A DNA stretch of 64,000 nt from an uncultured bacterium (GCA_949288485.1 CASEKC010000001.1:71070-135069), one strand, 5' to 3'; numbered from the stretch's first letter, positions 2,889-60,905 are shown. Program-made: numbers and translations. The notes: generated from the letters alone by a model not told the origin.

Positions 2889-4751
2889 ATGGCAAAAGAA
2901 ATTATTTTAGGTATCGATTTAGGTACTACAAACTCAGTTGTTTCTTATTTACAAAGCGATGGAACTGTTAAAGTTATTCCAAACCCAGAAGGAACAATGA
3001 CAACTCCATCAGTTGTTGGATTTAAAGCAAAAGGTGAAGAAATTGTTGGTAATGCTGCAAAAAGACAAGCTATTACAAACCCAGATACTATTTCATCAAT
3101 TAAAAGAAAAATGGGAACTGATGAAAAAGTTCATATCAATTGTTTAAATAAAGATTTCACACCACAAGAAATTAGTGCAAAAGTTCTTGCTTATATGAAA
3201 TCTTATGCAGAAAAAAATATTGGTCATGAAGTTAAAAAAGCAGTTATTACAGTTCCAGCTTATTTTAATGATTCACAAAGACAAGCAACAAAAGATGCTG
3301 GTACAATTGCAGGACTTGATGTTGTAAGAATTATTAACGAACCAACAGCTGCTGCATTAGCTTATGGTTTAGGCAAAGATAAGAGCGAAAAAATTTGTGT
3401 CTTCGACCTTGGCGGTGGCACACTCGATGTTTCAATTCTTGACATTGGGGACGGAACATTTGAAGTCGTTTCTACATCTGGCGATAATAAACTCGGTGGT
3501 GATGACTGGGATAATGTCGTTGCTGATTGGATTAAAGCTCAAATTAAAATTCAACATGGTGTAGATATTAATGACAACATGGCATTACAAAGATATAAAG
3601 ATGCTGCTGAAAAAGCAAAAATCGAATTATCTTCTAACTTAGAAACTACAATTTCATTACCATTTATTGGTATGGGTTCTAATGGTCCTATTTCTTTTGA
3701 AACAACACTTTCAAGAGCTAAATTCCAAGAATTAACTAAACATTTACTCGATAGATGTGTTGCACCACTTGAAAATGCTATTCGTGATGCTAAATTAACA
3801 TATAACGATATTGACGAAGTATTATTAATTGGCGGTTCAATTAGAATGCCAGCTGTCCAAGAATTAGTTACTAGAATTACTGGTAAAAAATTAAATCTTT
3901 CTGTTAACCCAGATGAAGCTGTTTCTATTGGTGCAGCTTTCCAAGGTGGTATTTTAAGTGGTGATGTTAAAGACGTTATTCTTCTTGATGTTACACCTTT
4001 AACATTAGGTATTGAAACTATGGGCGGTGTTATGACTCCATTAATTCCACGCAACACAACTATTCCTACAACAAAATCACAAATTTTCTCTACAGCTGCT
4101 GATAACCAACCTGCTGTTGATATTATGGTTTATCAAGGTGAAAGACCAATGGCACACGATAATAAATTACTTGGTCACTTCGCTTTAACTGGAATTAAAC
4201 CAGCTCCAAGAGGAACTCCACGTATTGAAGTTACATTCAATATTGATGTTAACGGTATTGTTAAAGTTAGTGCTAAAGATTTAGATACACAAAAAGAACA
4301 AGAAATTACTATTTCTGGATCTAATGGATTATCTAAAGAAGAAATCGATAGAATGGTTAGAGAAGCTGAAGCTAATAAAGAAGCTGATGAAAAGAGAAAA
4401 GAAGATGTCGAAGTTAAAAATAAAGCTGAGTCCTTTATTGCTGAAATCGATAACGCTTTAAGAGAAAAAGGTGATTCTCTTGATCCAAAACAAAAAGAAG
4501 AAACTCAAAAATTAAGAGATGAATTAAAAACGGCTTTAGATAACAATGATATCAACACACTTAAAAATAGATTAAGTGAACTTGAAAAAGTAGCTGCTTA
4601 TATGCAACAAGCTCAAGCAAATCCAAATGCTCAAGCTAATACTTCTAATGAGCAACCAAATAGCCAAGATACATCTTCAAGTGAATCTAGCGATAACTCA
4701 TCAACTAAAAAAGATGATGATGTAATCGATGCAGATTTCACTGATAAATAA
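2889..4751 (+). CDS. dnaK: molecular chaperone DnaK (Hsp70)
   Basis: [16 protein letters not shown] and the EEVD-less acidic C-terminus. RBS AGGAGG at 2871-2876. Confidence 0.97.
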
Positions 4752-4757
4752 TAATTA

Positions 4758-4780
4758 AAGGGAAGTTAATTCTTCCCTTT
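4758..4780 (+). terminator. intergenic hairpin AAGGGAAG-ttaa-TTCTTCCCTT between dnaK and dnaJ (attenuator or partial terminator)
   Basis: Perfect 8-bp GC-containing stem, but only a short T tract follows. Confidence 0.4.
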
Positions 4781-4809
4781 AGTTGTCTAATAAAAGGGAG
4801 GAGAGATGT

Positions 4810-5958
4810 ATGGCTGCTAGTAAAAGAGATTATTATGAAGTTTTAGGTGTTAATAAAACTGCATCTCAAGATGAAATAAAAAGTGCTTATCGTAAATTAG
4901 CAAAAAAATATCATCCAGATAATAAAGAAACTGGAGATGCTGATAAATTTAAAGAAGCTACTGAAGCTTATTCTGTTTTAAGTGATGAATCAAAACGTAG
5001 AACATATGACCAATTTGGTCAAGCTGCTTTTGATCAAGCTAGTGGTGGTCAAAATCCATTCGCTGGAAGTGGTTTTGAAGGATTTAATTTTGGCGGCGGA
5101 GATTTTGATGATTTAAACGATATCTTATCAAGAATGTTTGGTGGTTTCGGAGGAACGTCTTCAAGAAGAAGTGCTTCTGGTTCATATAGAGGTGAAGATA
5201 CATTAATGCGTATTCGTATTAATTTTATGGATGCGGTTAATGGTAAAAAAGTTACTATACCAGTAAGTTATGATGAAAAATGTAAAGATTGTAATGGAAC
5301 TGGTGCTAAAAATGGTAATGAATTTGATAAATGTCCACATTGTAATGGTCGAGGAAGAGTGGTAAGACAAACTCAAACTTTCTTTGGAACAATGCAATCT
5401 GAAAGTGCTTGTCCTTATTGTGGGGGAAGTGGAAAATTAATCAAAACTAAATGTCCTACATGTGGAGGAAAAGGTTATACCCGCGTTAAAAAAGATATTG
5501 AAATTAATATTCCTGCCGGTATTCAATCTGGTCAACAAATTCGTGTTGCTGGAAAAGGCGGAAGAGGTATAAATGGCGGAGATAATGGAGATTTATATAT
5601 CGAAGTTATAGTAAGCGAACATAATTATTTCAAAAGAGATGGAAATAATGTTCATATTACAATTCCACTCGATTTTATTGATGCTGCATTAGGTATTACA
5701 ATTACAATTCCAACAGTTTATGGAGAGGTAGATTTAAAAATACCTAGTGGAACTCAACCAGATAGCGTCTTTAGATTGAAAGATAAAGGCATTAAGGAAT
5801 TAAGAGGAAACGGATATGGTGATGAATTTGTTCACGTTGAAGTTAAAATTCCTACCTATTTAAATAAAGATCAAAAGAAAGCTTTGGAAGAATATAAACA
5901 CGCAACATCTAAAGGTGATTCATTCTTTGATAAATTCATGAAAAATTTTAAAAAATAA
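4810..5958 (+). CDS. dnaJ: molecular chaperone DnaJ
   Basis: J domain with HPD, a G/F-rich region and four CxxCxGxG zinc-finger repeats. RBS AAGGGAGGAG at 4795-4804. Start at the ATG 4810 ([11 protein letters not shown]). Confidence 0.95.
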
Positions 5959-5975
5959 TAAAATGAATCTATAAT

Positions 5976-6006
5976 AAAACTAGTTTTCAATTAAAACTAG
6001 TTTTTT
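5976..6006 (+). terminator. rho-independent terminator: two copies of the palindrome AAAACTAGTTTT followed by a T tract
   Basis: aaaactagttttcaattaaaactagtttttt lies immediately after dnaJ. Confidence 0.55.
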
Positions 6007-6012
6007 GTTTAT

Positions 6013-6825
6013 ATGGATAAAAAATATTATTGTATCGGGATTTTTTTAGGTGATTCTATTGGATCACTTTATGAGAATAAATTGTGTTTGAATAAAGAAG
6101 AAATTTATCCTCTTTTTAAAGAAGATTTAAATTCATTAAGTGATGATTCAATACTTTCTTTAGCAACTATCGATTATTTATTACATTCTATTATTAAAGA
6201 TGATTATTATTTATATTTAAAAAAACGGTATAACCTTTATCCAAATTCACGTTATGGATTAATGTTTGAAAAGCGGTCTAAATCAAATAAAATTGATGGA
6301 TATTTTTCTAAAGGTAATGGAGCTTTAATGAGGATATCACCTATTGTTTATTATTTTAATGATTTAGAGACTATAAAATCTGAAACAATTAAAAATGTTT
6401 CAACAACCCATAATAGTGATGAAGCAATTTTATCTTCTTTAATTTATGTAGAAGTGATGTTTTTATTAAAAAATAAACATACTAAACAAGATATAAAAGA
6501 TTATTTAAAAGAAAAATATCAAATCAATCCATCTAAAATTAAATTAAATAAAGATAGTCTTTTTGCTTTTGATACGCTTTTAAATTGTTTATATTTCTTT
6601 TTTAATTCCAATGATATAAAAGAAATTATTGAAAATATAATTACTTTTAATGGAGATACTGATACAATTTTAGGAATAACTTTAACTATGGGTGAATTTT
6701 ATTATAAAATAGATAAAGAGTTGATAGATATTCTATTTAATAAATTACTTAAAAAGGATTTAATAATATTTAAACTTATAAATGAATTTAATGAATATTT
6801 GATAAAAAAAGAAAGTAGAGATTAA
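6013..6825 (+). CDS. ADP-ribosylglycohydrolase (ARH/DraG) family protein, short form
   Basis: N-terminal GxxxGDSIG, an SDDS (TDDT-like) segment and the C-terminal GDTDT motif that is characteristic of the ARH family. Not part of the canonical dnaK operon. Confidence 0.55.
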   Translation: MDKKYYCIGIFLGDSIGSLYENKLCLNKEEIYPLFKEDLNSLSDDSILSLATIDYLLHSIIKDDYYLYLKKRYNLYPNSRYGLMFEKRSKSNKIDGYFSKGNGALMRISPIVYYFNDLETIKSETIKNVSTTHNSDEAILSSLIYVEVMFLLKNKHTKQDIKDYLKEKYQINPSKIKLNKDSLFAFDTLLNCLYFFFNSNDIKEIIENIITFNGDTDTILGITLTMGEFYYKIDKELIDILFNKLLKKDLIIFKLINEFNEYLIKKESRD

Positions 6826-6826
6826 A

Positions 6827-7267
6827 ATGTTAAAATGTAGAAATTGTGGTCAAAAATTAACGAAATTTCATAAAGAAATGTGCCCTTATTGTGGAATTAA
6901 AAATCCGATTGAAGATTTTACTGATTCTTCTGATACTACACAAGCAATCGACAAAATTAAAGAAGAAGAATTAGTTTTTAATGAAAAAAGTTATCGTAAT
7001 TACACGCTTTTTTCATTATTTTTAGGTATTTTTAGTGTTGATTTATTTTATTTAGGATTTAAAACATTAGCATTAATGCGTTTATTAATTAATTTTGGTA
7101 TATGGTTAGTTTCATTTTTAACAATATTTTTAATTAATAATGATTTACTTATCGTTTCAATTTTTGCGCCTTTAGGTGTTTTATATCTTTTATATTTCTT
7201 TTATGGTTTATTTAAACTTATAAAAAGAAATCATATTAAAGATAAAAATGGAGTTTATTTAAAATAA
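6827..7267 (+). CDS. zinc-ribbon (CxxC...CxxC) plus TM2-domain-like membrane protein
   Basis: N-terminal CRNCG...CPYCG. C-terminal LFLGIFSVDLFYLGFKTLALMRLL resembles the TM2-domain consensus (GxxGxhRFYLG). Two to three TM helices. Confidence 0.45.
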   Translation: MLKCRNCGQKLTKFHKEMCPYCGIKNPIEDFTDSSDTTQAIDKIKEEELVFNEKSYRNYTLFSLFLGIFSVDLFYLGFKTLALMRLLINFGIWLVSFLTIFLINNDLLIVSIFAPLGVLYLLYFFYGLFKLIKRNHIKDKNGVYLK

Positions 7268-7982: not shown

Positions 7983-8741
7983 ATGAAATTATACGAATAT
8001 TTATATTTACAAAGAAATAAAAAATTTTTCAATAATAGCGAAGAATTTATCTTTTTTAGAAATTATAAGAGAGTTTTAGAAAACGAACCTTCCTTTTTAA
8101 TTTATGCTGATAATGAAGATTTGTTTGATATCATTAAAGCAAATATCATTATAAAAGGTATTATTAATAAAAATACTTTAGAGCAAATTATAGAAGAAGA
8201 ATTTTTGAATAAGAATTTTAATACCAACGAAGAAATTATTGAAAATATAAGAGAAAGAAGTTTGGATTTACCTTATTTAAAGGTCGAAGATCAAAAAATA
8301 TTTATCCCATTTTTCAATCGTTCAACTAATTTAGTTTATTCGAAAAATTATGAAGAAATTATGAATGAACCTTATCTTGATTTAAGGAAAAAATTCGCTC
8401 CTTTCATAGTAAATCCTTTTGAAACATATCAAATTGATTTATTTGACTCACTTTTTACAAAATTTGTTAGAGTAATGGAAGATGAAACGTCTGTCGCTTT
8501 TTATCATTATGATTTAAGAACAATTTTTATTATTAATAAGCAAGGTTATCTCGATAATTATATATGTCTTTTTGATAAACACTTAAAAAATCCATCAGAA
8601 GATCGAATTATTGATAGAATAAAATTAGTTATTAAGGAGTATTATGATAATAACTTAACAGGTTTTTTATATTCAATGTATGAAAATAATTTAATAAGTT
8701 ATTATGTTTATAGAAGATTATGCAAATGGAAAAAGATTTAA
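7983..8741 (+). CDS. hypothetical protein (252 aa), lineage-specific
   Basis: Long ORF in coding-dense context with no recognisable motif. Inserted between rsmE and mtaB, which are adjacent in Bacillus. Confidence 0.4.
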   Translation: MKLYEYLYLQRNKKFFNNSEEFIFFRNYKRVLENEPSFLIYADNEDLFDIIKANIIIKGIINKNTLEQIIEEEFLNKNFNTNEEIIENIRERSLDLPYLKVEDQKIFIPFFNRSTNLVYSKNYEEIMNEPYLDLRKKFAPFIVNPFETYQIDLFDSLFTKFVRVMEDETSVAFYHYDLRTIFIINKQGYLDNYICLFDKHLKNPSEDRIIDRIKLVIKEYYDNNLTGFLYSMYENNLISYYVYRRLCKWKKI

Positions 8742-10000
8742 CATTTTTAATAGAATTTTTAGGATGCAAAGTTAATAGTTATGAAGTTGAATGTATAGCC
8801 AATGAATTAGAAAATGAAGGTTATTCACTTTTTAATGAAGCAATACATAGCGAACCAACTTTAATTTTAATCAATACCTGCGCAGTAACACATACATCAG
8901 TTATTAAAGATAGAAAAATGATACGTCATTATAAAAATAAATATCCTAATTCACTTTTAATTGTTATGGGGTGCTATGCTTCTTTTGATGCTGATTATAT
9001 TTCGTCTACTTTAGGAGCTGATATTGTAATCGGAACTCAAAATAGAAACAAATTATTGGAACTTATTAATGACTATAAAACAACTAAAAAACCACTAATT
9101 ATTAAGAATAATAATGAATGGAAATATGAAGAGATAGAATTAGACCATTTTTTATTTAATACTAGAGCTTATGTAAAAATCCAAGATGGTTGTAATAATT
9201 TTTGCTCATACTGCTTAATTCCTTTTGTTCGTGGAAGATCAAGAAGTAGGAAAAAAGAAGATATTTTATATGAGATTTCGCGTTTAATTTCACATGGCTA
9301 TAAAGAAGTAGTCTTAACTGGAATTGATATGTCTTCTTATGGTTTTGATTTATATGATGATTTTAATTTTAGCGATCTTTTAGAATATATTTTAGAAAAC
9401 AATAAAGATTTATATCGTTTAAGAATTTCTAGTATTGAAGAAAGCAATATCGATGAAAAATTTTTAAAATTACTGGGAAAATATAAAAATATTGCTAATC
9501 ATTTGCATATTCCTCTTCAAAGTGGAAGTAAAAAAATAGTTGAAAGAATGAATAGGAAATATAATTTAAACGAATTCAAGGAAAAAATTAAAAAAATAAG
9601 ACAAATCCGTCCAGATATTGCGATTTCTACCGATATAATTGTTGGTTTTCCAGGTGAAACAGAAGAAGATTTCTTGGAAACTTATAATAATGCCAAAGAA
9701 ATAAATTTTTCTAAAATTCATGTTTTCCCTTTTTCGCCTAGGAAAGGTACTTTAGCTGAAAAAATGAAGGATCAAGTAGATGGTAACATTAAAAAAGAAC
9801 GTGTAAATCGATTAATTGAACTTTCTACAAAATTGGAAAAAGATTACGAAAATAAATTTATCGGACAAAAGATGGATTTTTTATTCGAATCCGGTGAAAA
9901 CAATATTTATAAAGGACACTCTTCAAATTTTTTAGAAATTAGCATTGATTCAAAAGAAAATATTAACGGAAAAATCATCGATTTTATCTATAAAAATTAG
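8720..10000 (+). CDS. mtaB: tRNA threonylcarbamoyladenosine methylthiotransferase MtaB (MiaB-like radical SAM)
   Basis: N-terminal FLGCKVN, the MTTase Cys residues and the radical SAM motif CNNFCSYC, plus a TRAM-like C-terminus. Corresponds to yqeV after rsmE. Confidence 0.8.
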   Translation: MQMEKDLTFLIEFLGCKVNSYEVECIANELENEGYSLFNEAIHSEPTLILINTCAVTHTSVIKDRKMIRHYKNKYPNSLLIVMGCYASFDADYISSTLGADIVIGTQNRNKLLELINDYKTTKKPLIIKNNNEWKYEEIELDHFLFNTRAYVKIQDGCNNFCSYCLIPFVRGRSRSRKKEDILYEISRLISHGYKEVVLTGIDMSSYGFDLYDDFNFSDLLEYILENNKDLYRLRISSIEESNIDEKFLKLLGKYKNIANHLHIPLQSGSKKIVERMNRKYNLNEFKEKIKKIRQIRPDIAISTDIIVGFPGETEEDFLETYNNAKEINFSKIHVFPFSPRKGTLAEKMKDQVDGNIKKERVNRLIELSTKLEKDYENKFIGQKMDFLFESGENNIYKGHSSNFLEISIDSKENINGKIIDFIYKN

Positions 10001-11262: not shown

Positions 11263-11290
11263 GAATCCTCATTAAGTTGAGGATTTTTTT
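11263..11290 (+). terminator. rho-independent terminator GAATCCTCA-ttaagt-TGAGGATTC followed by T8
   Basis: Perfect 9-bp stem plus T tract directly after rpsU. Confidence 0.7.
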
Positions 11291-11345
11291 AATAAAAAAA
11301 TGCATAAATTTTTTATTTTTAGCCTTCTTGTATATAGAAGGAGAA
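11291..11345 (+). repeat. copy 1 of a ~60-bp leader element: A7-TGCATAAATTTT-N8-AGCcTTCTTGTATA-ta-GAAGGAG
   Basis: Shares TGCATAAATTTT and AGCnTTCTTGTATA blocks, at the same spacing, with the reverse complements of 37194-37262 and 60844-60905. CCTTCT (11323-11328) can pair with AGAAGG (11336-11341), which overlaps the SD. Confidence 0.5.
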
Positions 11346-11349
11346 ATTT

Positions 11350-12540
11350 ATGAGTTATTTTATTAGACAAATTGGAGAAAAAGATTGCGCAATTACTTCA
11401 CTTAAAATTTTATTAGCAAATATTTATAAAAGAAAAGATTTTCTTTTTTATCCTCAGGCAAACATAAATGAGGCGCTATCTTTAAAAGATGTAATTAGAA
11501 TAGCTAAAAATGAAGGTGTAGTTTTAAGTGCTTATCGATTGAAAAACAAAAATGAAATTAAAGAATTAAAGCATAAAAAATCTTTAATAGTCATTAAAAG
11601 AAGGAATATACTTCATTTGATTTATTTGAAAAATATCAAAAGAAGAGGAGTCGTAATTTTAGATCCAAAAATCGGAAAAGTATTTATGAAGTTTCAAGAT
11701 TTTTTCGAAATTTGGAATGGAGAAGTATTAGAAACAGTAAAAGTTAATGGAAGTAATTTTAATATTAAAAAGAAAAGAATCATTCATTTATATAAAGAAA
11801 TATTAATGATAGCTTTTCAAATTTTTACTTATTCTTTATTTTTGTGTGGATTATATTTTATTAATAATACGGTAGATTTTTTAATTCCTTTGGTTTTATT
11901 TATCTCTTTTATTTTTTCTTTACTATTATTTAATTATCTCTTAATAAATTTTATGAAAAAGATAGATAACGATTTATTTAAAGGAATTTATCGAAGTGAA
12001 GGAAATTTAAAGGAAAAATATTTAAAAATCACTAAATTAAAAACATTAATATTTACTTCACCTTTAGAACTAATATCATCTATTTTGTTAGTGACTTTTT
12101 CATTAAGTATTTTAGGTATCAATAGTTATTTAAGTTTAATAATTGCCTTTTTTGTTTTATTTATTCAATTTTTATTAAAAGTTATTAGTTCTTCGTATTT
12201 GGATTATAGAAAAAATTATATTGAAAATTGTGAAAATAATTTATTTTTAAGCGAAAATGAAGAAAATGCCTTATCTAATTTTAAAGTATTAAATGATGAA
12301 GTATATAAATTTATAACTTTAAATAATTTAAAAAAATTTTTACTAATTTTAATAATTATTGTTGGATGCTTATTTCTATGTTCCTTTGAAAAAGAAATTT
12401 CCTTAAATTATCTTTTATTTCATGTTTTTGCAATTTATTATATTTCATCTAATTTTGATAAGATTTTAGATTTTAATAAAAATTATGAAGAATTAAATTA
12501 TTTAAAATCGATTTACTATTATTATTCGAAAACTTATTAA
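11350..12540 (+). CDS. standalone peptidase C39-like domain membrane protein (no ABC ATPase domain)
   Basis: N-terminal IRQIGEKDCAITSLKILL (Q...DC of the C39 bacteriocin-processing peptidase), candidate His (NILHLIYL) and Asp (VVILDP), then about five TM helices. Stops 28 nt before ybeY with no nucleotide-binding domain. Confidence 0.6.
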   Translation: MSYFIRQIGEKDCAITSLKILLANIYKRKDFLFYPQANINEALSLKDVIRIAKNEGVVLSAYRLKNKNEIKELKHKKSLIVIKRRNILHLIYLKNIKRRGVVILDPKIGKVFMKFQDFFEIWNGEVLETVKVNGSNFNIKKKRIIHLYKEILMIAFQIFTYSLFLCGLYFINNTVDFLIPLVLFISFIFSLLLFNYLLINFMKKIDNDLFKGIYRSEGNLKEKYLKITKLKTLIFTSPLELISSILLVTFSLSILGINSYLSLIIAFFVLFIQFLLKVISSSYLDYRKNYIENCENNLFLSENEENALSNFKVLNDEVYKFITLNNLKKFLLILIIIVGCLFLCSFEKEISLNYLLFHVFAIYYISSNFDKILDFNKNYEELNYLKSIYYYYSKTY

Positions 12541-12568: not shown

Positions 12569-13039
12569 TTGGCTATGGAACTTTATATTAATAACACATT
12601 AGACATTGATTTAATCGATTACGAGCCAATTTTTACAAAATTATTAAATAAAACTTTTAAAATATTATCTTTAAATGATAATGTTATTTGTTCGGTTACT
12701 TTTGTTGATGTTGAAACAATACATAAAATTAATAAAGAATATCGAAATATTGATAGACCAACAGATGTAATTTCCTTTGCTTTTTTAGATGATAAAAACG
12801 AGATAATTAAAGGCGATATCCCTTTAGATATTGGCGAAATGTATATTTGTTATGAAGTTGCTGATGAAAATAGAAAAAAATATAATAATTCAATTGAAAG
12901 AGAAATATGTTTTCTGTTTGTACACGGACTTTTACATCTTTTAGGATATGATCATATGGAAAAAGAAGATGAAGAAGTAATGTTTGCTTTACAAGATGAA
13001 ATTTTAGAAGGAGAAGATCTATGGATAAAAAAGAATTAG
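12569..13039 (+). CDS. ybeY: rRNA maturation endoribonuclease YbeY
   Basis: HGLLHLLGYDH zinc motif. Extended -10 (tTGtTATAAT) at about 12555-12564. Confidence 0.85.
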   Translation: MAMELYINNTLDIDLIDYEPIFTKLLNKTFKILSLNDNVICSVTFVDVETIHKINKEYRNIDRPTDVISFAFLDDKNEIIKGDIPLDIGEMYICYEVADENRKKYNNSIEREICFLFVHGLLHLLGYDHMEKEDEEVMFALQDEILEGEDLWIKKN

Positions 13040-36617: not shown

Positions 36618-37148
36618 CTAACAAATATAATTGTTTTTCTTATAATTTCTATTTAATTCAAACTTTTTATTAGCTAATCTTAAATAATATAATTGTATTC
36701 TTTCAACTTGATCTATATTTAAATATCCATAACCTCTAGAAAGTATTTTATTATCTTTAATATTAACCAATTTCTTATTGATCATTTTTATTCCTTCTAA
36801 GCGAGCATAAAATATATTATTTCTACTAATTAATGGCAAAATCCCTATTTCAAGGAATTTTTTACAATCAACTTTAGTGTTCATCTTATTAAATGTTTCT
36901 AAAGGGCAAATAAAAACTGTATTATCGTTATTCATGCTATCTTCTAAAGATAAAGCTAATTTAAATATAGGATTATTATTGTTATCAAATCTTGATACAT
37001 ATTGAAATATTTGGCCCTTGTAAATTGGAAAATTATTTGTTGGTAATGGTGATCTATAACCATTGTTTAGTGAATCTTCGAGATCTTTATTAACGTTTTT
37101 AGCATATAAAGTCCGTCTTGATAAATGATAAGTATTAATGAAATCCAT
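36618..37148 (-). CDS. hypothetical protein (176 aa, soluble), lineage-specific
   Basis: Start placed at MDFINTYHLS, preceded by AGGAGG-tagaaat-ATG. The track's upstream TTG extension is unsupported. No recognisable domain. Confidence 0.45.
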   Translation of the reverse strand: MDFINTYHLSRRTLYAKNVNKDLEDSLNNGYRSPLPTNNFPIYKGQIFQYVSRFDNNNNPIFKLALSLEDSMNNDNTVFICPLETFNKMNTKVDCKKFLEIGILPLISRNNIFYARLEGIKMINKKLVNIKDNKILSRGYGYLNIDQVERIQLYYLRLANKKFELNRNYKKNNYIC

Positions 37149-37193: not shown

Positions 37194-37262
37194 TTCACTA
37201 TACAAGAATGCTAGAATTTTAAAATTTATGCATATTTTTTTAAAAATTTTTAAGAGAGCTAC
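37194..37262 (-). repeat. copy A of the ~60-bp leader element (sense on the minus strand)
   Basis: Reverse complement reads ttaaaaatttttaaaaaaataTGCATAAATTTTaaaattctAGCaTTCTTGTATAgtGAAAAG, 46 nt upstream of the 176-aa ORF start. Confidence 0.5.
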
Positions 37263-53780: not shown

Positions 53781-56555
53781 TTAATCGTTAATACCAACAA
53801 AAATTGCTTCTTCTGGTCCATCATCATTTTTCTTGTTATGTTTAGATGGATATTTTTTCCTTCTTTCTTCAATTGAAGAATTAATTTTAACTTTAATTTT
53901 ATTAAAGAAAGTTGCAAACATAAATTCTATTGGTAAAACAAGGAATCTTGTTGAAATAACTTGTATAATCATTCCAGCTAATATAAGAATGAGTAAATAT
54001 TGATTAATACCATTTACAAAGAAAAGTGAAATAACAATGAATGAAGAAATTAAAGTTAAATTAATAATACTTGGATAATAAGAATTTAAACAATATTCAT
54101 ATTGTTCTCTTCTTAATGATAAATCATTATCAATTTCTTTTCTTTTTTCACGTAATACTTCTTTTTCTTTATTAAAGTATGTAATTAAGATTATATATCC
54201 TAAAAGTGTTAATAATAATCCACCAAGAGTAATGATTGAAGCAAATGGTCCATTAATTAATGAGAAGATGCCGATTGTAACAGTTAAGCTTCCACCAACT
54301 AATAAGATAGAGGTTAATGTTTTAGAAATATTAAATCTAAATAACATATAAACACTGCTTACAGCAACTCCAATAAGGCAATAAAGCATAACATAATAAT
54401 TATTTGAATCATTATTAACGTTATAAACTTGATTTAATGTAATAGTTGGAGAACCTAAAACAGGTCTAAGTTGAATATCTAATGCTTCTTCAATTCTCAT
54501 CTCAACAACACTTCCATCATTTTGAAGTGTATAAATTAATGAATCAGAGTTATAAGCATCATCTAAAGAAACAATAAAATAATATTCTTTATTAGTAACG
54601 TTATTGACAATATAAGAATAATTATATGTTTCCATTTCGACATCATTAAACATTAATGTGTCTTCGTCTTCATAGAATTGTGTTAAGAAAACATTTCTAA
54701 TATTTTCTTCATATCTTTGAATATCACGAGAATCATCGCTAGAAACATTTCTTCTATCGATTCTAATAACAACTTCACTATTTTGTTCAGCTGAAGTTGA
54801 ATTATAAATATTTCCTCTTACAATTTGGAAGGTTGTTAATCCAATAATTGAAGCAAGTAAAAGAATTGAAGAAGCAATAGTTAAAGCAAGACTTGTCTTT
54901 TTATTATCTCTTTTCTTAAATTGATCAAAATATGTTGGTTTTTCATCCATAGAAAGATTTGGAACTTTCTTTTTATCAACACCGATTAATGATAATTTAT
55001 TAGCGACTGTAGAAGAATTATAAATTAACCATGAAAGTGCTCTTAAAAGTGCACCATTTAAAACAATATTTAAGATTGAACCAACAATAAGTAATGAACC
55101 AAATGAAATTAAGATTGAGTTTGGAATTAAATAAGCTGTAATACCTAAAATTAAAGTAATAACTGAAACATCAATTTGAGTAGCTAAACTCTTTTTATTT
55201 CCATCGATATAAGCTTTTTTAATATTTTTACCTAAATAAATTTCATCTTTAATCTTTTTAAAATAAATTCCTGAAGAGAATATAGAAAGCATTACTAAAC
55301 TAATAAGTCCAATAATTGTTCCGATATTAAATTCACTTCCAAATGTATTAAATAGACCAATTGAAGAAATAAACATAGCTACACCATTTAAAATAGCACT
55401 GATACCATTAATTCCATAATTTAAAACTAAAAATAATGAAACAACAATTGCTGCAATTAAGGTAGCGATAAATAATCCGTTTGACCAGTTAATTGAATTC
55501 ATATAAACAAGGAAATCAGTAAATGGTTTAACGGTTGTTGTATAAGCATTGTCACCATTAACATTTAATAAAGTGACATTAAAATCATAACTTGAAGAAT
55601 TAAATTTATGCATCCAAATATTAGCTTTTTTATAAGCTAAGACACGGTCACTTTCAGTTGCACCATAGAATGCATTATCTTCTGTTGAAGAAAGATTGTA
55701 CCCACCGAAATAAATTTCATTATAAACAGCATTTGTTTGATCTTCTTCTGATAAATTAGCATCATAATCCCAATAGAAAGAAGATGGATTTGTTGCATCA
55801 AAAGTAAATAAAATGTGTTCTTTAATTTGTTTTGCACTTAAAAATTCATTTCCTTTATTTTCAATTAATGTGTCGATAGTTAAACCATCAACCCAGTTAT
55901 TTAAAATAAAAATTAAATTTTCATTTGCAGTTGTTTCTTCTTCACCTTCTTCAGTTGAATTATCACTTGAGTCTTCACTATCTGCTTCTGCTTCACTTGC
56001 AGCTGTTACGATGGTTTTAAATTGTTCAGGATCAGAAAGAGAAACTACAACATAAGGATAATTATCTCTATATTCAATTCTTGCTGAACCACTTTCAAAA
56101 AAGTTAGCATCTCCACTTAAAGAAGCAATTTCACTTGGTGTTTGTCCAGCAGTTGGGTCACCACTATATGTCGAAGCCATAAATGACCATGAAAAATTTA
56201 AATATGATGAAATATCATCATATAAAGCGCTTTCAGTTTTAAAAGTGACTTTTATTGTATCAAGACCACTTGTTTCAAGACGATAATCACTAATATCAGC
56301 ATTATCAAGTCTTACTTTAAACTCATTAACGGCGTCATCTAAACGATTTTGTTTATCTTGATCAGAAATATTTCCGTCATCAGTTGTCCCACCATTAGAA
56401 ATATCGAATGTCTTTTCACTAATTTTATAGACATAGGTTCTCATTGATTCATAATCTCCAGTACCATTTACGTTAATAAATGAAGGTACGAGAGCAACTA
56501 ACAAACCAAGAAGTAATGATGCTACTACACTTATATATCCAACTATTCTTTTCAT
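53781..56555 (-). CDS. secDF: protein translocase subunit SecDF (fused, 924 aa)
   Basis: N-terminal TM helix, a large extracytoplasmic domain, then about 12 TM helices in two RND-like repeats. Position between recJ and ruvB as in Bacillus. Carries an acidic low-complexity insert. Confidence 0.75.
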   Translation of the reverse strand: MKRIVGYISVVASLLLGLLVALVPSFINVNGTGDYESMRTYVYKISEKTFDISNGGTTDDGNISDQDKQNRLDDAVNEFKVRLDNADISDYRLETSGLDTIKVTFKTESALYDDISSYLNFSWSFMASTYSGDPTAGQTPSEIASLSGDANFFESGSARIEYRDNYPYVVVSLSDPEQFKTIVTAASEAEADSEDSSDNSTEEGEEETTANENLIFILNNWVDGLTIDTLIENKGNEFLSAKQIKEHILFTFDATNPSSFYWDYDANLSEEDQTNAVYNEIYFGGYNLSSTEDNAFYGATESDRVLAYKKANIWMHKFNSSSYDFNVTLLNVNGDNAYTTTVKPFTDFLVYMNSINWSNGLFIATLIAAIVVSLFLVLNYGINGISAILNGVAMFISSIGLFNTFGSEFNIGTIIGLISLVMLSIFSSGIYFKKIKDEIYLGKNIKKAYIDGNKKSLATQIDVSVITLILGITAYLIPNSILISFGSLLIVGSILNIVLNGALLRALSWLIYNSSTVANKLSLIGVDKKKVPNLSMDEKPTYFDQFKKRDNKKTSLALTIASSILLLASIIGLTTFQIVRGNIYNSTSAEQNSEVVIRIDRRNVSSDDSRDIQRYEENIRNVFLTQFYEDEDTLMFNDVEMETYNYSYIVNNVTNKEYYFIVSLDDAYNSDSLIYTLQNDGSVVEMRIEEALDIQLRPVLGSPTITLNQVYNVNNDSNNYYVMLYCLIGVAVSSVYMLFRFNISKTLTSILLVGGSLTVTIGIFSLINGPFASIITLGGLLLTLLGYIILITYFNKEKEVLREKRKEIDNDLSLRREQYEYCLNSYYPSIINLTLISSFIVISLFFVNGINQYLLILILAGMIIQVISTRFLVLPIEFMFATFFNKIKVKINSSIEERRKKYPSKHNKKNDDGPEEAIFVGIND

Positions 56556-60647: not shown

Positions 60648-60830
60648 TTAATTCCATGAGAACTGATATCCACCTGGAAGTTTAATTATTCCATCATTTG
60701 ATGTAAATAATTTATAAGCAGCTACCGCAATAATTGAAACAATCATAATTGCAATAATAGCAGCTAAAGTTACCGCTTCACCAGGTTTAATATTTTCTAG
60801 TTCTTCTTCACTTAAGATAACTTTATTCAT
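60648..60830 (-). CDS. hypothetical 60-aa single-pass membrane peptide
   Basis: MNKVILSEEELENIKPGEAVTLAAIIAIMIVSIIAVAAYKLFTSNDGIIKLPGGYQFSWN. Strong SD GGGAGG-ttttttg-ATG. The track's upstream extension falls inside the repeated leader element. Confidence 0.45.
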   Translation of the reverse strand: MNKVILSEEELENIKPGEAVTLAAIIAIMIVSIIAVAAYKLFTSNDGIIKLPGGYQFSWN

Positions 60831-60843
60831 CAAAAAACCTCCC

Positions 60844-60905
60844 TTCACAATACAAGAATGCTCCGAGAGGCAAAAATTATTCACTTTTTTTAAATATTTT
60901 TAATT
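60844..60905 (-). repeat. copy B of the ~60-bp leader element (sense on the minus strand), overlapping the valS stop
   Basis: Reverse complement reads aattaaaaatatttaaaaaaaGTGAATAATTTTtgcctctcgGAGCaTTCTTGTATtgtGAAGGGAGG-ttttttg-ATG. Same block spacing (41 nt) as copy A. Confidence 0.5.

Follow-up and report, generated by a model that had tools for sequence, protein, structure and literature searches.

A PCAT-like C39 peptidase membrane protein without an ATPase, encoded upstream of ybeY in uncultured gut and rumen Bacilli, and its candidate peptide substrate

A C39 peptidase gene upstream of ybeY encodes no ATPase

We analyzed a 64,000-nucleotide stretch of DNA from an uncultured bacterium (GCA_949288485.1 CASEKC010000001.1:71070-135069; hereafter the window), which has 26% G+C and reads cleanly with genetic code 11. 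Directly upstream of ybeY, we found an open reading frame (ORF) of 396 aa, with an ATG start and a TAA stop, that encodes an N-terminal C39 peptidase domain followed by a six-helix membrane domain (Table 1). This protein (hereafter the C39-TM protein, for its peptidase and transmembrane, TM, parts) resembles a peptidase-containing ATP-binding cassette (ABC) transporter (PCAT) that has no nucleotide-binding domain (NBD). A second gene of the window encodes a 60-aa peptide with a double-glycine-type leader. Full-text literature searching turned up no account of a PCAT family that lacks the NBD; new here is a PCAT lineage without an ATPase, apparently paired with a conserved housekeeping double-glycine peptide.

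No NBD was found in the ORF (no ABC_tran match in Pfam), and the ybeY start codon 28 nt past the stop leaves no space for one, in agreement with the initial annotation of this DNA, which had pointed to both features. By motif scan, the window encodes no protein that combines Walker A with LSGGQ. We applied the same scan to 80 related loci from genomes of different species, out to the third gene on either side of the C39-TM gene, and found an ABC ATPase in 0/80.

A HMMER search gave 407 homolog cluster representatives (276 at E<=1e-10), and the best 150 of the 407 are all about 390-420 aa or are shorter fragments. Truncation by a frameshift or pseudogene formation was considered and is ruled out by the TAA stop, by ybeY following after 28 nt, and by the conserved length and active site in hundreds of homologs. 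As read from these sequences, the loss of the NBD is predicted to be ancestral to a large family and permanent, and not an artefact. The initial annotation had offered a peptide-processing protease or a truncated and neofunctionalized exporter, and both fit a truncation that is conserved family-wide. It had also named three observations by which to judge that reading, and we found a C39 match, catalytic residues conserved among homologs, and no in-frame ATPase domain behind a frameshift.

Table 1. Positions of the protease gene, the peptide gene and associated features (counted from the first letter of the window)
Feature	Position	Strand	Evidence
Gene for NBD-less PCAT-like protein (C39 peptidase and six-helix membrane domain)	11350..12540	+	ORF, Pfam, homologs, AlphaFold (AF2), fold matches
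C39 (double-glycine leader) peptidase domain, aa 3-129	11356..11736	+	PF03412 and profile matches
Gln7 codon (oxyanion-hole residue)	11368..11370	+	129/133 conserved
Cys13 codon (catalytic nucleophile)	11386..11388	+	133/133 conserved
His89 codon (catalytic)	11614..11616	+	132/133 conserved
Asp105 codon (catalytic), 16 residues past His89	11662..11664	+	131/133 conserved
Six-helix membrane domain, aa 147-393, predicted type I ABC exporter transmembrane domain fold	11788..12528	+	AF2, Foldseek, full-length profile, conservation
ybeY, TTG start at 12569, near-invariant 3' neighbor	12569..13039	+	ORF; 28 nt after the stop of the C39-TM gene
Hairpin and T-run after rpsU (stem 11264-11285)	11264..11292	+	Terminator scan; T-run read from sequence
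Upstream region of the C39-TM gene: A-tract and TGCATAAATTTT, 13-nt core AGCCTTCTTGTAT (11321-11333), Shine-Dalgarno GAAGGAG (11337-11343)	11293..11343	+	Sequence
Second copy of the 13-nt core, upstream of the peptide start codon	60850..60862	-	Motif count; also 5' of the orthologous peptide gene in L081
60-aa precursor peptide gene, candidate substrate	60648..60830	-	ORF and Shine-Dalgarno, family, leader logo
Peptide leader, aa 1-17	60780-60830	-	
Mature 43-aa membrane peptide, aa 18-60	60651-60779	-	

The C39 domain is predicted to be an active protease

The peptidase domain matches PF03412 (Peptidase_C39) over aa 3-129 with 51.5 bits (cutoff 22, E=1.2e-13), and 17/17 family members tested match the same model. 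The catalytic set consists of Q7-x4-D12-C13, H89 within NILHLIYL and D105 within VVILDP; the initial annotation had picked the same motif and residues from this one sequence, and they proved to be 97-100% conserved in an alignment of 133 homologs whose identities reach down to ~20% (counts in Table 1). PCAT1 presumably has the same spacing of 16 residues between His and Asp.

Corroborating the Pfam match, the family profile matched the solved C39 domain of LahT150 (6mpz) at E=2.7e-19 and also matched the peptidase domains of PCAT1 and ComA. The predicted C39 fold superimposes on LahT150 and on the ComA peptidase domain with a template-modeling score of about 0.7 (Foldseek). The C39 domain is predicted to be an active protease under selection, and not a degenerate C39-like domain, because Gln7, Cys13, His89 and Asp105 are near-invariant in the 133 homologs.

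The membrane domain is predicted to have an ABC exporter fold

We modeled the whole protein with AF2 using the 133-sequence alignment (predicted local distance difference test score, pLDDT, 96.1; predicted template-modeling score, pTM, 0.90). The model has six long TM helices (147-169, 178-214, 220-258, 260-299, 304-347 and 352-393), one more than the roughly five counted originally. The predicted cytoplasmic turns between helices 2 and 3 and between helices 4 and 5 are 4-5 residues long and lack a separate coupling helix, and the chain extends 3 residues beyond helix 6.

When this model was compared with the PDB by Foldseek, inward-facing PCAT1 came out on top (6v9z, 8vp5, 4ry2; E 1e-11 to 5e-14), with a superposition that covers the whole chain, peptidase and membrane domain together (template-modeling score 0.63-0.68). 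Next came HlyB and then the peptidase-free exporters TAP, TM287/288 and the PCAT1 core. These last structures contain no peptidase; hence, their matches come via the membrane domain alone. In the same direction, the full-length family profile aligns continuously to PCAT1 residues 16-352. Based on the AF2 model, the Foldseek matches and the full-length profile alignment, the exporter-type transmembrane domain (TMD) fold is a confident prediction and is not homology proven from sequence.

Four residues of the membrane domain, D206, K231, N258 and E295, are near-invariant (95-98% in the 133-sequence alignment), which suggests a role for the membrane domain beyond that of a protease anchor.

A 60-aa peptide with a double-glycine-type leader is the likely substrate

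The double-glycine-leader pattern was searched for in six-frame ORFs of the window and the 80 related loci (about 1.3 Mb), and the sole match was the 60-aa peptide gene at 60648-60830. No ORF with a double-glycine (GG) leader lies adjacent to the C39-TM gene (within 10 kb) in the 80 loci by phmmer, hmmsearch and regular-expression scans of six-frame ORFs. The initial annotation was thus literally right that no double-glycine peptide gene is adjacent; it did not recognize that the distant 60-aa gene, which it had listed as encoding a membrane peptide, has a leader of this type.

The precursor of the window reads MNKVILSEEELENIKPG up to the predicted cleavage point and EAVTLAAIIAIMIVSIIAVAAYKLFTSNDGIIKLPGGYQFSWN after it. 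With a profile built from close homologs and from syntenic copies upstream of rplU in metagenome contigs, we found at least 92 peptides of 58-61 aa, which come from the same kinds of metagenome-assembled genomes (MAGs) as the C39-TM family; two of them carry the JGI label 'bacteriocin-like protein'. Another member, given as a representative, is MEELSQEEMLTLSGG before and EPVSLAAVMAVM... after the predicted cut.

The leader is strongly patterned. Position -1 is Gly in 93/93 members, and position -2 is Gly in 51, Pro in 19, Cys in 17, Val in 5 and Tyr in 1; the remaining preferences are Ile/Leu at -4, Leu/Met at -7, Glu/Asp at -8, Ser/Thr at -11 and Leu/Ile at -12. At -1, -4, -7, -8, -11 and -12 this logo fits double-glycine leaders, which run to about 15-18 aa and have the consensus M(R/K)ELX3E(I/L)X2(I/V)XG(G/A), as quoted in a passage of PMC3140520; a true GG is present in 51/93 members, and the peptide of the window has PG. 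The mature part is strongly conserved, is 43 aa in 86 of the 93 members, and is laid out as a transmembrane helix followed by ...PGG(F/Y)xFxW(K/N), i.e. as a single-pass membrane peptide. The class IIb bacteriocin family TIGR03949 (lactobin A/cerein 7B) matches weakly and below its cutoff (17.1 bits vs 21.5, E=0.0035).

In the loci examined, valS always immediately precedes the peptide gene, and radC, or the L21 leader with rplU, follows it. The peptide is a vertically inherited core gene, like the protease, and in this it does not behave as a bacteriocin or a pheromone would. We consider the 60-aa peptide the likely substrate of the C39-TM protein.

Several features were seen at the peptide locus itself. 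In lineages with a true GG (L164-L168, L170 and L173-L178; peptide gene about 4001-4177 or equivalent), the peptide gene starts ~45 nt after valS and overlaps the radC start by 26 nt within a valS-peptide-radC unit; radC is absent at the peptide locus in the lineage of the window. Between the peptide gene and rplU of the window there is a ribosomal protein L21 leader (RF00559; 60473-60553, minus strand), which scores 34.2 bits against a gathering score of 36 (E=3.4e-5) and was missed by the default Rfam scan. The spacer between valS and the peptide gene (60831-60875, minus strand; 4958-4998 in L081; 3615-3643 in L083) folds as a GC-rich hairpin followed by a U-run, and the Shine-Dalgarno sequence of the peptide gene makes up the 3' arm of this hairpin (CCUCCUUU...AAAGGAGGUUUUUU). 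The stem is preserved via compensatory changes in the three genomes (z=-5.3 in L081), and the hairpin could terminate valS transcription, control translation, or do both.

The protease and peptide genes share contigs and an upstream element

The two genes lie on one contig in the window, 49 kb apart, and a second contig, CASFZN010000020.1 (212,428 bp), has both about 40 kb apart. A third case is deduced from record sizes, with record names unchecked: P0017 and P0207 are both from records of 130,700 bp, and the NCBI record of L004 has 130,685 bp. We sought further same-contig pairs and found that P0282, P0241, P0219 and P0229/P0016 lie on other contigs. Both families are reported under the same taxonomic labels.

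The initial annotation had proposed that the leader of the C39-TM gene shares a repeated element with the 60-aa peptide gene, and exact 13-nt copies indeed stand upstream of both. This core, AGCMTTCTTGTAT, has 3 exact copies in the window vs 0.00 expected in shuffles, and it sits 17 nt upstream of the start codon of the C39-TM gene and 20 nt upstream of that of the peptide gene. Across 180 loci, the exact core is confined to sites upstream of C39-TM genes (in L003 and L007) and of a peptide gene (in L081). The upstream element is conserved 5' of the C39-TM orthologs of L001-L004, L007 and L025, and relaxed forms of it are conserved 5' of many orthologs.

The third exact copy in the window (37200-37212, minus strand) has the same A-tract and TGCATAAATTTT and lies upstream of an ORF of 176 aa (36621-37148, minus strand), for which neither Pfam nor NCBIfam gave a match and which may share a regulon with the C39-TM and peptide genes.

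We rejected the idea that the shared element is a generic promoter box, since CTTGTAT-type boxes were not found upstream of other genes of the window. A hairpin that sequesters the Shine-Dalgarno sequence finds weak backing (z about -1.8 to -2.0; no such fold forms in the third copy), and an Rfam scan of the leader of the C39-TM gene found no known RNA family. In genomes where the C39-TM gene follows ribF (L014/L016 and L021/L022, in the latter at about 9920-10000), a CGTCTTGTATAGTGAAGG box stands ~60 nt upstream of the gene and is followed by a leader hairpin (GAAGGCAC...GTGCCTTC). Because of this distance and the hairpin, the conserved CTTGTAT box reads more like a promoter or operator than like a part of the ribosome-binding region, as its placement in these sequences suggests.

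Genomic context of the protease gene

The C39-TM gene is followed in the window by ybeY, cdd, era, recO and glyQS. Across the 80 loci, ybeY is directly downstream in 63 (8 more stop at the gene), and the 5' neighbor varies between rpsU/deoC and dnaJ. The context differs in L014, L016, L019, L021 and L022, with ribF upstream and a DnaD-like protein, nth or ileS-lspA downstream; these neighbors are all housekeeping genes and uninformative. In a horse-gut MAG (L071), valS (4492-7128) lies directly upstream of the C39-TM gene and is apparently split into two ORFs by a frameshift or an assembly error. In the window, the hairpin and T-run after rpsU are predicted to mark off a separate transcription unit that starts with the C39-TM gene.

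The closest genomes come from gut and rumen and are uncultured MAGs with the labels Bacilli, Candidatus (Ca.) Onthovivens, 'Mollicutes' or 'Erysipelotrichaceae'. The clade that has the C39-TM gene consists of small-genome gut and rumen Bacilli, among whose MAG labels Ca. Enteromonas is also found. We found that a 924-aa membrane protein without a Pfam match (53781-56555, minus strand) is a divergent mollicute-type SecDF (NF046001, E=1.5e-38, far under the cutoff of that model), which fits a Mollicutes-like, fast-evolving lineage. Elsewhere in the window, the otherwise classical hrcA-grpE-dnaK-dnaJ...mtaB region has two uncharacterized insertions between dnaJ and mtaB, one encoding a small membrane protein with a zinc ribbon and a TM2 domain (6827-7267, plus strand) and the other a 252-aa ORF that matches no family (7983-8741, plus strand).

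Proposed mechanism and alternatives

The explanation that we favor, with moderate confidence, is a housekeeping NBD-less PCAT derivative that cleaves the 58-61-aa peptide of its clade, and probably inserts or exports it, without an ATPase of its own; as part of this explanation, the C39-TM gene heads the ybeY-cdd-era operon as a vertically inherited housekeeping gene of the clade. On the cytoplasmic side, the amphipathic leader (L-12, S-11, E-8, L-7, I-4) would bind the groove of the peptidase, and Cys13 would cut after the invariant Gly-1, i.e. between IKPG and EAVTL in the peptide of the window. The hydrophobic product of 43 residues, in or next to the cavity of the membrane domain, would then be released into or through the membrane with no ATP hydrolyzed by the C39-TM protein; hydrophobic partitioning and the proton-motive force are possible energy sources.

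Several observations weigh against this explanation. The 49 kb between the two genes in the window is unlike the operons of classical PCATs and their cargo, same-contig co-occurrence is limited to the three cases, one of them deduced from sizes, and L071 has valS beside the C39-TM gene and no peptide gene in 18 kb. The peptide of the window has Pro at -2, and this PG is unusual for C39 substrates. The inspection covered 64 kb of this genome, and a full-length PCAT or an orphan ATPase may be encoded elsewhere in it. For the membrane domain, proof of an ABC exporter TMD at the sequence level failed: PF00664 (ABC_membrane) was not matched at E<=1 in 17 family members, and a TMD-only profile found nothing significant in the PDB (MsbA only at E=6.2).

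More tentatively, since we judge it possible and not yet probable, the C39-TM protein could be an ATP-independent housekeeping 'leader peptidase-insertase' of the PCAT lineage that delivers a 43-residue peptide conserved clade-wide to the membrane or to its far side, with the two dispersed genes forming an undescribed two-gene core system of Mollicutes-like gut Bacilli with small genomes and sharing a specific upstream control element. Its driving force would be hydrophobic partitioning or a proton gradient, possibly with a part for D206, K231 and E295. A precedent for the second kind of energy is SbmA, whose NBD-less membrane domain is structurally related to the TMDs of ABC transporters and is driven by the proton gradient, according to a passage of PMC13316013.

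It is rather unlikely, in our view, that the protein is only a membrane-anchored protease, with the six helices as a tether and with substrates that insert via YidC/Sec or spontaneously. The C39 domain of LahT150 is said to cleave GG leaders alone in vitro, and this isolated domain was crystallized with a bound leader peptide (PDB 6mpz); a Sec component, the SecDF described above, is encoded in the window; and the mature peptide, a single hydrophobic helix, could enter the membrane unaided. Set against a mere tether, the length of the membrane domain is as conserved as that of the peptidase, its four polar residues are near-invariant, and the PCAT1-like inward-facing arrangement with a docked peptidase is predicted with very high confidence.

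A split transporter, in which an ATPase encoded separately elsewhere drives processing and export, is distinctly unlikely, and the separately encoded ATPase partner that the initial annotation had suggested did not emerge from any of the searches. In bacteria, the subunits of a split ABC system are normally encoded in one operon, and neither the window nor the three genes on each side at the 80 related loci supplied an ABC ATPase. The model argues in the same direction with its short turns, in which the coupling helix is missing, and with the end of the chain so close to helix 6; the membrane domain has about 250 aa, and the protein aligns to the peptidase and TMD of PCAT1 over about 460 columns. 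In favor of a split transporter stand the PCAT1-like fold and domain arrangement, the 64 kb to which the inspection of this genome extended, and the coupling of ATP hydrolysis to processing and export in canonical PCATs, as stated in a passage of PMC11491471.

Last, that the 60-aa peptide is unrelated to the C39-TM protein, which would then have other GG-leader substrates while the peptide is matured otherwise or never cleaved, is very improbable: the 49-kb distance, the PG of the window and the lack of a peptide gene near valS in L071 would agree with it, but no other GG-type leader turned up in the window or in the related loci (about 1.3 Mb), the two families share a clade distribution and three contigs, and the 13-nt element is seen outside the window only at C39-TM and peptide genes. 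A quorum-type role, also raised initially, is unlikely, since the membrane peptide that is the candidate substrate is hydrophobic and strongly conserved and has a housekeeping setting.

PCATs are a textbook example of how ATP couples leader cleavage to export, and here a large natural family has kept the protease and the translocation domain and dropped the ATPase. Either the membrane domain can move or release hydrophobic cargo without ATP, in which case the PCAT lineage would have gone, much like SbmA, from primary to secondary or passive transport, or it has turned into a platform that holds the substrate for a membrane-bound protease. The peptide offers a concrete, easily synthesized substrate for such a test. 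The pairing would also mark an uncharacterized, strongly conserved small membrane protein as a core component of abundant uncultured gut and rumen bacteria, and double-glycine leaders would serve housekeeping proteins beyond bacteriocins and pheromones.

Comparison with known systems

The nearest curated family by sequence is NF045998 (the Mbov_0121 family of mycoplasmas), to which residues 7-200 of the C39-TM protein align over model positions 2-191 of 673 (E=2e-13). The score of 49.5 is far from the cutoff of 500, and, in contrast to the C39-TM protein, NF045998 is full length with an ATPase. Isolated C39 domains (LahT150 6mpz, 3k8u, 5xe8 and 7n87) share the fold and catalytic residues and include the best profile match noted above. 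However, these are laboratory truncations of full transporters, whereas the C39-TM protein is natural and keeps its membrane domain, lacking only the ATPase.

The C39-like domains (CLDs) of HlyB-type transporters have no catalytic Cys and do not cleave. Like the C39-TM protein, these transporters have an N-terminal papain-like domain on an exporter membrane domain (Foldseek matches 7sgr and 8dck). Cys13, in contrast, is invariant (133/133) in the C39-TM family; hence, its peptidase domain is not a CLD.

SbmA/BacA (SLiPT family) are alike in that a domain related to ABC TMDs works on peptides without an NBD and draws its energy from the proton gradient, as the same passage of PMC13316013 describes. 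They differ in that they are importers without a C39 domain, and no sequence similarity was detected (no Pfam match), so the analogy is mechanistic only.

For the peptide, the closest likeness is to class II bacteriocin precursors (TIGR03949), whose leader is built alike and whose mature part is likewise hydrophobic. In contrast to these, no immunity or transporter genes were seen near the 60-aa peptide gene, which has valS on one side and rplU/radC on the other, P, C or V is frequent at position -2, and there is strong conservation of the mature sequence throughout the clade.

The PCATs themselves (AMS/PCAT; PCAT1 of Clostridium (Acetivibrio) thermocellum, ComA, BlpA, LagD, CvaB and SunT) share with the C39-TM protein the N-terminal C39 domain with its Gln/Cys/His/Asp site, the six-helix type I exporter-like domain, the docking of the peptidase predicted on the inward-facing form (6v9z, 8vp5, 4ry2), and a peptide with a double-glycine-type leader as the likely cargo. 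They differ in length, since the C39-TM protein has 396 aa without an NBD and PCATs have about 700-730 aa, and the cytoplasmic helix extensions of the C39-TM protein are shorter, with no predicted coupling helices. Its candidate cargo gene is 49 kb off and not in the same locus. Whereas PCAT genes lie in variable bacteriocin or quorum-sensing loci, the C39-TM and peptide genes lie in housekeeping operons throughout their clade, and the candidate cargo is a conserved membrane peptide instead of a diversifying toxin or pheromone.

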